64,000 nucleotides of DNA from Eledone cirrhosa. Taxonomy: Eukaryota. Numbering within the stretch: the first letter of the stretch is position 1; every line of letters starts with the position of its first letter. Below the pieces are notes generated by a model, which did not search any database, was not told where the DNA came from, and saw nothing but the letters and a program-made list of their open reading frames with translations. The stretch lies in contig OZ024759.1 in NCBI GenBank assembly GCA_964016885.1, forward strand, positions 26,412,001-26,476,000. Reading direction: 5' to 3'. Both the position numbers and the translations under genes were made by a program. Positions 33,715 through 62,221 of this stretch are shown here, piece after piece.

Positions 33715-34010
33715 TGTGAAGTATTTCTGTAGAAAGGGTAAAGGAAGGGAGAGTACTCTATGTATGCTACAGAGCTATTTAATTATTTAATAAACAACAT
33801 AAAACAATTATTCCATTTACCAAAGGTTTCACGAAGGCAGGCGAGCTCAACAGAGACGTCTGAAATCGCTCACCAGAATGAAAACTTATCTTACATCCAT
33901 ATTAAATTTTCATTCTGATGAGCGATTCCAGACTTCTCTATTGAGCTCGCCTGTCTTCGTGAAACCTTTGGTAAATGGAATAATTTCTTTATGTTGTTTA
34001 TTACATAATT
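33715..34010. mobile_element. Penelope-like inverted pLTR pair (arms ~33781-33884 and ~33907-34010) with unique tail 33715-33780
   Basis: ~104-bp inverted arms with (TA)n on both sides and an HHR core in each arm. Confidence 0.75.
33908..33980 (+). ncRNA. Type I hammerhead ribozyme (predicted cleavage after GUA, 33973)
   Basis: Stem I TTTCATT/AATGGAA, core CTGATGA at 33915-33921, stem II GCGA/TCGT, then GAAAC-C-TTT-G-GT-A. The mirror arm has the core mutation CTGGTGA. Confidence 0.75.
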
Positions 34011-34056
34011 ATATATATATATAAATAATAATAATAATAATAATTATATATATATA

Positions 34057-34285
34057 TATTAAAATAACAGGTTAAATTTTAAGCATAGAATCGCTGCTTT
34101 CACCCTTAACGGGATCTTCTAAAACTGAGTTTCAGAAGATCTCGTTAAGGGTGAAAGCAGCGATTCTTTGCTTAAACTTTAATCTGTTATTTTAATAAAT
34201 ATTTGCTCTGGGGTTCTTATATATTTTATATATATTTATCCCTTTAGAGCTCTCTTTGGATTTTAGCCTTCACATTTATTATTAT
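34057..34285. mobile_element. Near-perfect 70-bp-arm palindrome (34057-34197) plus tail, with a variant HHR-like core
   Basis: Centre aaact-g-agttt. Each arm reads (C/T)AGAAGA-T-CCC gttaa GGG-T-GAAA. Flanked by TA repeats. Confidence 0.6.
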
Positions 34286-34316
34286 TACTATATATATATA
34301 TATATATTTATATATA

Positions 34317-34813
34317 CATTTAGGTTTGTTGGTTCACCACTGGATAGAACTGGTCATTCCGTATAGTCAACCTTGATGTAATATTAGGGAGAGCAGTCGA
34401 CGACGTAATGCAACTCTCCCGTCTTCGTTTGTGTTGTTGGTGGTGCCAGTACGGAGTTAATTATTATAAAATAACAGGTGGCTAGACTGGTGTAATTCCT
34501 TAAAGGTTTATTATACTATGAATATTTCAATGACCGGGTTCAGTATGAATCCGGTGACATCATCAGGTATTCGAAATTTAACAAAGGAATAAATTAGACA
34601 CAATCCATGGGGCTGAAAAAGCAGAGAGACGAGAAGGCGACAAAACAATTAGCAGTTGCCAATCCGGTTGGCCGCCCATTATATTCCTTTGTTAAATTTC
34701 GAATACTTGATAATGTCACTGGATTCATACTGAACCCGGACATTGAAATGTTCATAGTATATATATAAACCTTTAAGTAATTACACAGATCCAGCCTCCT
34801 GTTATTTTATAAT
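34317..34813. mobile_element. Penelope-like inverted pLTR pair (arms ~34462-34591 and ~34683-34813) with tail 34317-34461
   Basis: ~130-bp inverted arms, ~90-bp spacer, TA flanks. Confidence 0.7.
34513..34570 (-). ncRNA. Type I hammerhead ribozyme candidate (AUA site)
   Basis: ATAC-CTGATGA-tgtcaccgg..ccggtcatt-GAAAT attc ATA-GTAT. The mirror arm core has decayed to TTGATAA. Confidence 0.6.
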
Positions 34814-35114
34814 ATATATATATGTAGATAGGTAGGTAGGTTTTGGAAATAATGTAACTCTCTTAAAAATATAGAAATTCGAGAAATTTTCGAAAATTCT
34901 GTAGAAATGAACTAACTCACTCACCCACAGACAGACAGACAGGCAGACAGAAAAACAGAAACAGTAGATATGACGTAAAATTTGCCAAAAAATGCTTCTG
35001 TTTCAAGTATGGAACGCTCTGGAGACCCGCTAATAATGGATGACGTATAACACGCAATAGCAAATATTAAAAAAAACTGATAATTTGGTAAGGCACCCAA
35101 GGGAGAGAGATAGT

Positions 35115-37232
35115 GATATATATATATATATATATATATATATATATATATACGTGTATATATATATATATATATATATATATATATATACGTGTATATA
35201 TATATATATATATATATATATATATATATATATACGTGTATATATATATATATATATGTATATATATATATATATATACATATGTGTATATATATATATA
35301 TATATATATATGTATATACGTGTATATATATATATGTATATATATATATGTATATATATATATGTATATATATATATGTATATATATATATATATGTATA
35401 TATATATATATATGTATATATATGTTTATATATGTGTATGTATATATATATATGTGTATATATATGTATATATATATGTGTATATATATATATGTGTATA
35501 TATATATATGTGTATATATATATATATGTGTATATATATATGTGTGTATATATATATATATGTGTATATATATATATGTGTATATATATATATGTGTATA
35601 TATATATATGTGTATATATATATATATGTGTATGTATATATATGTATATATATATATATATGTATATATATGTATATATATGTATATATATGTATATATG
35701 TATATATATGTATATATATGTATATATATATATATGTATATATATATATATGTATATATATATATATATGTATATATATATATATGTATATATATATATA
35801 TGTATATATATATATATATGTATATATATGTATATATATGTATATATATATATATATATATGTATATATATATGTATATATATGTATATATATATGTATA
35901 TATATGTATATATATATACATATGTGTATATATATATATACATATATGTATATATATATATATACGTGGATATATATATGTGTATATATATATACATATG
36001 TGTATATATATATATATATATACGTGGATATATATATGTATATATATACATATGTGTATATATATATATATACATATATATGTATATATGTATATATATA
36101 TGTATATATATATATGTGTATATATGTATATATATATATGTATATATATATATATGTATATATATATATACATATATGTATATATATATATACGTGTATG
36201 TATAGATATATACGTGTATGTTTATATATACGTGTATATATGTATATGTATATATATATATACGTGTATATATATGTATATATATATATATACGTGTATA
36301 TATGTATATATGTATATATATATATATACGTGTATATATGTATATATGTATATGTATATATATATATATACGTGTATATATGTATATATGTATATGTATA
36401 TATATATATATACGTGTATATATGTATATGTATATATGTATATATGTATATGTATATGTGTATATGTATATATGTATATGTGTATATGTATATATGTATA
36501 TGTGTATATGTATATATGTATATGTGTATATGTATATATATATACATATATGTATATATATATGTATATATGTATATGAATATATATATATATATACGTG
36601 TATATATGTATATGAATATATATATATATATACGTGTATATATGTATATGAATATATATATATATATACGTGTATATATGTATATGAATATATATATATA
36701 TATACGTGTATATATGTATATGAATATATATATATATATATACGTGTGTATATGAATATATATATATATATATACGTGTATATATGGATATGTATATGAA
36801 TATATATATATATATACGTGTATATATGTATATATGTATATGAAGATATATATATATGTATATGTATATATGTATATGAATATATATATATATATATACG
36901 TGTATATATGTATATGAATATATATATATATATACGTGTATATATGTATATATGTATATGAATATATATATATATATACGTGTATATATGGATATGAATA
37001 TATATATATACGTGTATATATGTATATATGTATATGAAGATATATATATATATATATACATGTATATATGTATATGTATATATGTATATGTATATATATA
37101 TATATATATATATATAAATTTATCTCTATATATATATATGTATGTGTATATATATATATATATATTTATCTCTCTCTCTCTATATATGTATATATATATA
37201 TATATATATATATATATATACATATATATATG
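35115..37232. repeat. 2.1-kb (TA)n array with TG, CGTG and GAA interruptions
   Basis: Directly visible in sequence. Confidence 0.95.
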
Positions 37233-60040: not shown

Positions 60041-60640
60041 GTATATATATATATAATTTATATATATATATATATATATATATATATTCATATAATTTAT
60101 ATATATATATATATATTCATATAATTTATATATATATATATATTCATATAATTTATATATATATATTCATATAATTTATATATATATATATATTCATATA
60201 ATTTATATATATATATATTCATATAATTTATATATATATATATATTCATATAATTTATATATATATATATATTCATATAATTTATATATATATATATATT
60301 CATATAATTTATATATATATATATATTCATATAATTTATATATATATATATATTCATATAATTTATATATATATATATATATATTCATATAATTTATATA
60401 TATATATTCATATAATTTATATATATATATATATTCATATAATTTATATATATATATTTATTCATATAATTTATATATATATATGTATATATATATTTAT
60501 ATAATTTATATATATATATATTTATATAATTTATATATATATATATATATATATATATATATATATATATATAATTTATATATATATATATATATATATA
60601 TATATATATATATATATAATTTATACATATATATATATAC
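60041..60640. repeat. Minisatellite ttcatataattt(at)n
   Basis: About 15 tandem units. Confidence 0.9.
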
Positions 60641-61728
60641 ATACTAGCAAGTTGAGACCCAAGCACATCTACACGTCTAAATACTAATATATATGCAGCC
60701 ATCTATATGTAAGGGTATGCGTAATTCGCACACACACACACACACACACACACACACACACACACACACACACACACACACAAACAAACACAATTATATA
60801 TATATATAGTGATAGACGGGGTGGATGTAGGTGTAAAGGGTTGTAGATATATGTGAATATATATATATACATATATATGGGGTGAGAGTTAGACGGTGGG
60901 TAGGTGTAAAAGTTTGGAGATTTATGTATATATATATATATACACAACACACACATATATATATATATATATATATATATATAATTTATATATATATAAT
61001 TTATATATATATGGGGGGAAAGTTAGACGTGGGTAGGTGTAAAAGTTTGTAGATTTATATATATATATATATATGTGTGTATATAAATGTGTGTATATAT
61101 ATATATGTGTATATAAATGTGTGTATATATATATATATATATGGGCAAAAGATAGATGGGGGAGTGTATGTATGTGTAAAAGGTGGTAGATATATATGTG
61201 GATGGTATTTATTGGTATATCGGGACATGAGTTGGAACGTATGTTAAGTAGATGATAGACGCCAATATTGAATCAAACATTACAACACATTAGAATGTAA
61301 ACAGTAGGAAATATTTGTTGGCCAGGGAATGTGTATAATACACTTGATATATCAACTGATATGGCTGTTAACACTAATGGATACACAGACACATGTATGA
61401 AAAGCATACCCGCGCACAAAACCATACACTGACAGTCTGTTTTTCTATTTTTGACATGTGTATACATATGTATTGCATATGTACACTCTCTTTTTACATA
61501 TGTATATATATATATACATATATATATATATATATATATATATATATATATATATATATATATATATATATATATATATATATATATTTAAAAGTTAAAC
61601 AAGGTTCAATGAATACATCAAAGAATGAGTTTTACAATAGATTGGAAGCACTCAACAGTAAAAGGGTTTCCAGAGTTATTAATATTAATTCAAGATATTA
61701 ACAAAATAGATATTCTTGTGATCAATTA

Positions 61729-61795
61729 TATTTTATTATACATATTTCAGAGGTACTGAGTTAAGTTCAACAGTACATCCTCATCAGATAAAATA
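61729..61795 (-). ncRNA. Type I hammerhead ribozyme (AUA site)
   Basis: TATTTTAT-CTGATGA-ggatGTACTG..CAGTACctct-GAAAT atgt ATA-ATAAAATA, with an 8-bp stem I. Confidence 0.75.
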
Positions 61796-61887
61796 AAATT
61801 ATGCATGACATACCCTGACATAGTAGATGGTACTACCATGACTGAATCTTAACCATCTACTATGTCAGGGTATGTCATGCATCATTT

Positions 61888-61949
61888 TATTTTATCTGAT
61901 GAGGACTTACTGTTGAATTTAACTCATCTGAAATATGTATAATAAAATA
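61888..61949 (+). ncRNA. Type I hammerhead ribozyme, mirror copy (stem II partly deleted; predicted cut after 61941)
   Basis: Intact core CTGATGA at 61896-61902 and GAAA at 61930-61933; 8-bp stem I. Confidence 0.65.
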
Positions 61950-62221
61950 TAATTGATCACAAGAATATCTATTTTGTTAATATCTTGAATTAATATTTAT
62001 ATATATATATATATATTTATTTATTTATATATGTCTGTCTGCATATGACTGTGTATGTATATATATATATATATATGTATATATATATACACATATATGA
62101 ATACAAATATTTGTTTATATATTTATATGTATATATATTGGGTAATATATATGTACCTGTCATGTGTATGTGTGTGTGTATATATATATATATATATATA
62201 TATATATCATATGTATATATA

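Follow-up and report, generated by a model that had tools for sequence, protein, structure and literature searches.

Penelope-like elements (PLEs) of the Hydra clade are the closest described systems to the DNA considered here. Section 11 of PMC8557442 gives them an endonuclease (EN) of GIY-YIG type at the C terminus, the motifs RWK, DKT, CxCx5C, CxxC and CxH, a hammerhead ribozyme (HHR) in the pseudo-long terminal repeat (pLTR), insertion into (TA)n, an inverted 5'-truncated copy and a tail. The inverted copies, tails and microsatellite bias of PLEs are described in the same source, a TATA box with an initiator has been reported in pLTRs (PMC3846280), and dual HHRs on opposite strands have been attributed to truncated PLEs (PMC4209133). 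All parts of the design are already published: pLTR copies in inverted orientation, tails, targeting of (TA)n and HHR pairs on opposite strands. In this work we analysed a window of 64,000 nt from Eledone cirrhosa (contig OZ024759.1, positions 26,412,001-26,476,000 of the forward strand), in which six short inverted cassettes follow that design. What we propose, with a probability of about 0.7, is that these cassettes are short PLE ends inserted head-to-head in (TA)n, and that they would arise when reverse transcriptase (RT), starting from two internal positions close to the 5' end of a sense RNA that is capped and uncut, copies up to that end and runs off it.

The evidence that carries this proposal comes from the 5' edges of family B, represented in the window by the cassettes at 45417 and 49364. 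Among 101 arms of this family, taken from loci not selected for upstream length, 82 end no more than 8 nt above the core, 2 fall at 9-29 nt and the other 17 at 30 nt or beyond, and the most frequent edge is -6, the first base of helix I (signed positions are nucleotides relative to the HHR core, and "above" means its 5' side). In 32 of the 37 long arms a TATA box lies exactly 30 nt above the -6 base, in two subfamilies with different spacers, and a CCAAT word stands upstream of it in the long copies. A G precedes the edge in 18 of the 22 arms ending at -6 (p 4e-6 against an expectation of one third), the long copies have C or T just before the -6 position (37/37), and of the 12 arms in which this base is not traceable to the partner arm, 10 have G. 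A TATA box normally lies about 30 nt above the transcription start, and an extra G is what copying of the cap leaves behind. The pile of edges below the TATA box, together with the extra G, indicates that the stubs are likely run-off cDNAs from a sense RNA that was capped and uncleaved, with priming at two internal sites; the template would be uncut because the copies span the cleavage site.

The mechanism would then run as follows. The promoter in the pLTR would start an RNA at or near the HHR, and the protein of the element would nick both strands of a TA tract, each nick priming one cDNA, one per start site. Both cDNAs would stop at the cap after ~70-300 nt, with the cap copied as G, and the two free ends would be joined by microhomology repair, with a few bases trimmed or some filler added, a pathway suggested by the signatures usual for it. 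Longer copies would require read-through RNA from tandem elements, short stubs lack the promoter, and read-through stubs are predicted to fold as a long hairpin rather than as ribozymes. Several of these steps have a biochemical precedent, since in vitro the purified Poseidon_Ac protein nicks AT-rich DNA on both strands and extends each, begins reverse transcription at two internal sites bounding the tail, and uses uncleaved RNA as template (PMC11167929). In contrast, genomic start-to-tail stubs, a cap-derived G, and the origin of the inverted copy are not described in the accessible part of that paper. A broader claim, to which we would give slightly better than even odds, is that most PLE copies here are "strong-stop-like" by-products, that is, twin target-primed cDNAs of the first 70-300 nt of a capped, sense, uncleaved RNA joined head-to-head.

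Edges in other families were read partly from bystander copies, meaning family copies inside loci fetched for other reasons. In family F the edges form a cluster at -5, likewise at the base of helix I, and are preceded by G in 9 of 12 cases scored by eye among bystander and partner arms only, the long copies having T there. A "GA" class in this family came from a biased sample, whose query included the junction of one copy, and was discarded as evidence. In the C2 copies the TATA word lies at -95, and 2 of 11 arms end at -64, with 1 beyond. Family J places 53 of its 60 edges at +41 to +50, inside helix II, and in seven long arms these edges lie 29-34 nt below a TATA-like word. This word was seen in the 5' strand of helix II of long copies (L156, L168, L241, L195), with the short-copy edge in the loop of the same helix. 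Three other clusters were rejected: that of family A at -6 is a reference mismatch, those of A2 and A at +33, +41 and +46 are cross-family hits and not cleavage-site ends, and that of family F at +89 was produced by a deletion in the reference.

Several results weigh against the run-off of a capped RNA. The edges of families A, D, E and Y are spread, with no sharp pile, so run-off is not supported for these four, and a scan of the A, A2, E, X and Y references found no TATA word. In family B itself the samples are top hits required to contain the core; of the 12 cases of a "free" G, two are found within (GA)n and another two come from a single amplified locus; and the AG near the edge in B and F could be a splice acceptor. 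The family with the best start-site signal is also one for which no reading frame was found, neither in 30 long copies nor in 17 extended to ~9 kb. None of the D (0/6) or H (0/5) arms is linked to a frame, no dedicated search having been made for either, and in family E the link is seen in one locus only. Of 12 arms folded in isolation, only 1 has the HHR as its lowest-energy structure. Finally, start sites, cap and cleavage are all predicted from DNA sequence.

The alternative that survives best, though we consider it unlikely, is random 5' truncation with an inverted second copy, where the shortness of the copies would reflect poor processivity or stalling at the HHR fold and not the 5' end of the RNA. 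This is the textbook account (5' truncation is so treated in PMC8557442), and it fits both the spread edges of A, D, E and Y and the long smooth tail of edges that family F has besides its -5 cluster. However, the family B gap at 9-29 (2/101) beside the pile at 0-8 (82/101) is not expected from stalling, nor are the 30-nt TATA spacing and the excess of G.

A somewhat less probable alternative, compatible with run-off, is that family B (perhaps also D and H) is non-autonomous and consists of a pLTR only, a SINE-like or retrozyme-like unit with its own TATA promoter that would use the protein of another family. No frame stands above any long B copy read, the long copies grading into (TG)n/(TA)n on the 5' side of the core at ~450-700 nt, and non-autonomous PLE derivatives have been reported (PMC8557442 section 10; 10.64898/2026.07.22.740005). 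However, the families that are linked to frames likewise have long, microsatellite-filled 3' untranslated regions (UTRs) that hide the frame, B copies are dispersed head-to-head or singly and not in head-to-tail HHR arrays, and the short ones, without a promoter, cannot re-amplify. Fold-back self-priming on an antisense template, as proposed for rotifer Penelope (PMC3846280), would account for the many near-perfect palindromic junctions and for those of family J in the helix II loop, but we hold it to be very improbable, because it leaves the sense-start edges, the extra G and the two fixed outer ends joined to (TA)n unexplained, and because the filler and trimming at the junctions fit end joining of two strands. 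The Adineta vaga Penelope pLTRs for which it was put forward resemble the present copies in their head-to-head inverted arrangement, optional tail, TATA and initiator, and solo pLTRs; that paper favours antisense self-priming, with deletion as the source of solo pLTRs, whereas the data here point to a sense capped RNA.

A PLE origin, which the preliminary description of the window had suggested beside a retrozyme-like one, is supported. Parent RT/GIY-YIG frames were found for three of the five cassette families, and none was found for the families of 45417/49364 and 34317. An upstream walk from family A met a GIY-YIG endonuclease on the same strand in three loci (L156, L224, L225); this piece itself had no Pfam match, and a search with it led to intact frames of 713-715 aa in L275, L276 and L277. 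These frames are flanked by A2 arms on both sides in 3/3 loci, which are all the long-frame loci read this way, they carry all five motifs (RWK, DKT, CxCx5C, CxxC, CxH), and in them the A2 tail continues into the frame's leader sequence; proteins related to that of L275 carry PF26215/PF01541 tags. Family F is joined to its endonuclease in three loci (L070, L173, L224), and family J is linked to a PLE frame in two (L156 and L168). A subfamily ~80% alike to family C is linked to a frame in 15 of 30 loci, with a full RT-EN in L430, where DKT, CxCx5C, CxLC and CxH are present and RWK had no match. In family E, 1 of 22 arms is linked to a frame without TA between. Families A/A2, F, the C subfamily and J are, therefore, EN+ PLEs with the RT/GIY-YIG frame upstream of the pLTR on the same strand. 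A Hydra-clade type for the parents of the 33715, 34057 and 61588 families is supported by a placement that uses motifs rather than a tree.

Three further PLE families of the genome end alike, with an HHR-like motif, a tail and TA. One of them (L154) has a 905-aa frame with RVT_1 and GIY-YIG by Pfam, a full inverted copy, a partial tandem and a tail that continues into the frame, a continuity observed in the A2 and L154 families only. The first PLE frames seen beside A and B copies (L115/L154, L173, L181, L158, L159) were rejected as parents, since they either are separate insertions or belong to other families, which have HHR-like ends of their own. In the window itself no RT or EN match was found, in agreement with the preliminary description, which had seen no PLE RT or GIY-YIG frame there. 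PLE frames are very abundant in the genome, with 20,304 and 56,842 first-look candidates, several of them open for 700-900 codons.

Some of these loci deserve mention in their own right. Compared with L173 and L224, the family F locus L070 lacks a GT...AG-bounded stretch ~100-950 nt above the core, and is apparently a PLE copy derived from spliced RNA; PLEs are known for retaining introns. A second, diverged HHR-like copy lies within the A2 3' UTR (L274-L277, ~5400-5600). The full-length A2 copy of L275 starts, at ~2720, no more than 2 nt from the predicted HHR cleavage site, and is possibly an insertion from cleaved RNA; those of L276 and L277 do not start there. On the minus strand of L066 (2260-2985), a TA-flanked inverted repeat of an internal RT fragment from another PLE family, without an HHR, has both arms stopping at the same base.

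In the window, the six cassettes, with outward-pointing arms, one of them tailed, and (TA)n flanks, are all present where the preliminary description had placed them. Each consists of two head-to-head arms of a type I HHR region that are 77-91% complementary, and together they belong to five repeated families: A (33715, with variant A2 at 17628), F (34057), D (34317), B (45417, 49364 and also 16790) and C (61588). Single arms or pieces add E (45727, 50273), H (54817) and J (33550-33697). An assembly artefact was ruled out, given that the arms differ by 9-23% and the ends recur across loci. The features are, in order:

16723 to 16878: decayed family B cassette; inverted tail piece 16723-16786 and plus arm 16813-16878, with GAAG for GAAA.
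17603 to 17785, plus strand: tailed single arm of family A2, with a complete HHR at 17628.
33550 to 33697, plus strand: family J pieces, namely a tail piece and the 3' half of an HHR.
33716 to 34015, both strands: family A cassette; minus arm 33716-33888 tailed, core changed to CTGGTGA; plus arm 33887-34015 a complete type I HHR with core at 33915 and a GUA site; putative parent a Hydra-type PLE.
34052 to 34297, both strands: family F cassette; minus arm 34052-34126, plus arm 34128-34297 tailed; core CAGAAGA (A at position 4), CUU site, both arms beginning at the first base of helix I.
34318 to 34814, both strands: family D cassette; minus arm 34318-34633 tailed, core at 34566, weak helix II; plus arm 34679-34814, core changed.
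45412 to 45606, both strands: family B1 cassette; minus arm 45412-45474, plus arm 45479-45606 tailed; in both arms the trimming reaches into helix I on its 5' strand.
45631 to 45792, minus strand: single arm of family E, inserted beside the B1 cassette; minimal HHR with an extra base after A9 and a GUU site.
49362 to 49552, both strands: family B2 cassette; B2 copies are 98-99% alike, and helix I differs from that of B1 by two compensatory pairs.
50190 to 50414, minus strand: single arm of family E, with a longer 5' extent than the copy at 45631 to 45792.
54817 to 55001, plus strand: single arm of family H, with GACA for GAAA.
61588 to 62001, both strands: family C cassette; minus arm tailed (core 61787), plus arm with core at 61896 beginning at -64; both arms satisfy the type I descriptor.

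The preliminary description had missed the complete HHR at 17628 and the family J pieces, which besides 33550-33697 occur at 40221 and 6793. It had read a CTGATGA-GAAA core in the arms; at 34057, however, the cores read CAGAAGA/TAGAAGA, and in one arm each of 33715, 34317 and 49364 the core is altered. Its single arms at 45727, 50273 and 54817 do belong to repeated families, the last with GACA in the core, while 16790 turned out to be a broken two-piece cassette. The single arm that it placed at about 62370 did not hold up: GAAA is absent, the genome search matched only itself (1 match from 1 candidate, in a search that can miss repeats), and this site is a single-copy HHR look-alike.

As for insertion, TA lies within 12 nt of the 3' end in 28 of 30 B and 29 of 30 A loci (the 30 loci returned for each family) against 0.15-0.25 at random positions, which bears out the earlier remark that several families favour (TA)n. 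Beside bystander copies TA was found in 15/18 cases for B, 14/15 for C, 15/15 for D, 71/86 for J and 11/16 for E, in 64 of 72 hits for F (split hits counted in), and in only 4/13 for H. Of the 30 loci per family, 22 in B and 18 in A contain an inverted arm, which stops at one fixed site in 18/22 and 13/18 of them; among the bystander copies, the ends in A, B, C, D, F and J form two clusters. In each family the two outer ends are fixed and adjoin (TA)n, and the tail is the stretch between them. The junctions between arms show trimming and templated filler, many being near-perfect palindromes, and those of family J are located in the helix II loop. Insertions nest in one another's TA flanks, which accounts for the cluster at 33550-34814.

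The abundance of these motifs was measured with a type I descriptor requiring the core, helix I of at least 4 bp, helix II of at least 3, helix III and an NUH site. The bare core pattern occurs 8 times in the window against 0.71 by chance, and six arms pass the full descriptor (17628, 33915, 45758, 50308, 61787, 61896) against a mean of 0.05 in 20 shuffles of the window. The preliminary figure of one HHR-like locus per 6 kb stands for the 11 loci with a core region; only 5 loci, which hold the six arms, pass the full descriptor. A further 130 kb from 13 regions not picked for HHRs (two window neighbours and eleven at round coordinates) gave 7 descriptor arms against 0.25 in shuffles, and extrapolating this density to the genome of 3.0 Gb suggests an order of 100,000 HHR arms. 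First-look candidates numbered ~2,200 for family A and ~1,700 for B, with 40 of each scored, and are lower bounds, not copy numbers. Window GC is 31% and TA runs make up 14% of its bases; TA arrays dominated the output of the inverted-repeat finder, and an Rfam scan returned no hammerhead among the best 150 of 637 matches, where microsatellite and hairpin matches dominate.

Covariation, which the preliminary description had proposed as a check, is present in family B and in the C superfamily. Helix I of B covaries between subfamilies at two pairs: among 84 long arms one pair is C-G in 31 and A-T in 44, and the other is G-C in 21 and A-T in 48; the C superfamily (110 arms) has at least 5 paired variants of helix II, and its helix III loops are palindromic. 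These changes are inherited and go back to few events (two in B), but they fit selection on the fold in master elements. Families B and H satisfy the type I descriptor in long copies, the other H copies having a canonical core and an 8-bp helix I, and in the 45417 and 49364 arms little of the 5' strand of helix I is left. A U3-A8 core occurs in 4 of 7 long family J arms, and a helix II beginning with U-U is reported to be tolerated (PMC3088659). Family F and the 62370 site fail the type I core. In family F (for example at window 34133) the A at core position 4 is family-wide, the helices are intact and the family is young, with many copies 100% alike, which makes it a candidate for an inactive or variant hammerhead.

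Whether such arms would fold as ribozymes depends on their context. Under a folding model that ignores tertiary contacts, and with the helix II of family E misregistered, an isolated arm has its HHR as the lowest-energy structure only at 17628 (A2). Inside the cassettes, in 9 of the 9 arms folded, the arm-to-arm hairpin leaves every HHR pair a probability of 0.00, and whichever strand is read, the antisense arm is the first to be transcribed. The arm-to-arm hairpin is thus predicted to block HHR folding on both strands of the cassettes, and the earlier suggestion that some could cut transcripts from either strand is not supported by this model. PLE HHRs are known as weak cutters in vitro that may need dimers or protein (PMC4209133, PMC11167929).

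Set against the published systems, the families share with the minimal HHRs of metazoan PLEs (PMC4209133) the dispersed single motifs, the dual HHRs 100-700 bp apart on opposite strands, the palindromic helix III loop, the extra base after A9, the U3-A8 variant and the many families per genome. They differ in that several have longer helices II or III, the A at position 4 of family F has no counterpart found in the accessible part of that paper, and the density, extrapolated to the order of 100,000 HHRs per genome, is far above the 2,000-9,000 given there, the descriptors not being the same. Tails are 55-140 nt here and 30-40 bp in the general description of PLEs (PMC8557442); compared with Hydra-clade PLEs, the 3' UTRs are long and microsatellite-filled and most copies are frame-less stubs. 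Animal non-LTR retrozymes (10.64898/2026.07.22.740005) are likewise short non-coding HHR units related to PLE pLTRs, but are defined by tandem arrays, whereas the copies here are dispersed, single or inverted, with PLE tails. The retrozyme-like origin offered earlier as an alternative gained little: apart from one locally amplified inverted arm (L008), no head-to-tail HHR monomers were noticed in the loci read, where no systematic tandem test was run.

The element type being known, the catalogue value of these results is modest and lies in several PLE families without annotation and in an HHR density that is unusually high. More weight falls on the junction pattern, since it bears on head-to-head copying, on which RNA strand is copied and on the role of the HHR, all of them stated as open in the literature at hand, and since stubs that are young and abundant, have their edge set by a TATA box and carry an extra G would make questions about the template testable from one genome and a 5'-end library. 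If the strong-stop reading is true, it would settle the template polarity of PLE palindromes, with the hammerhead uncut when copying begins, allow PLE start sites to be mapped from DNA alone, and delimit some 100,000 promoterless hairpin inserts as a class; the start site of family J would lie inside the ribozyme, leaving the whole hammerhead only in read-through RNA. Where transcribed in introns or UTRs, the stubs would form duplexes of 50-150 bp, possible substrates for editing or for small-RNA pathways. We found no published account of start-site-to-tail stubs with an extra G, in a search that did not extend to most subscription journals, Repbase, Dfam or the supplements of PMC8557442 and PMC11167929.

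The window also contains repeats of other kinds. A 42-bp inverted repeat with a (TA)n loop at 62225-62320 is unrelated to the HHR design. A ~190-nt repeat without an HHR, probably a SINE, occurs in many copies (1236-1517, 30079-30700, 38194-39842, 43833-44495, 52878-53639 and 55638-56028) and is also inserted in PLE flanks. Long compound TA/TG microsatellite arrays occupy 35100-37230 and 56225-58520.

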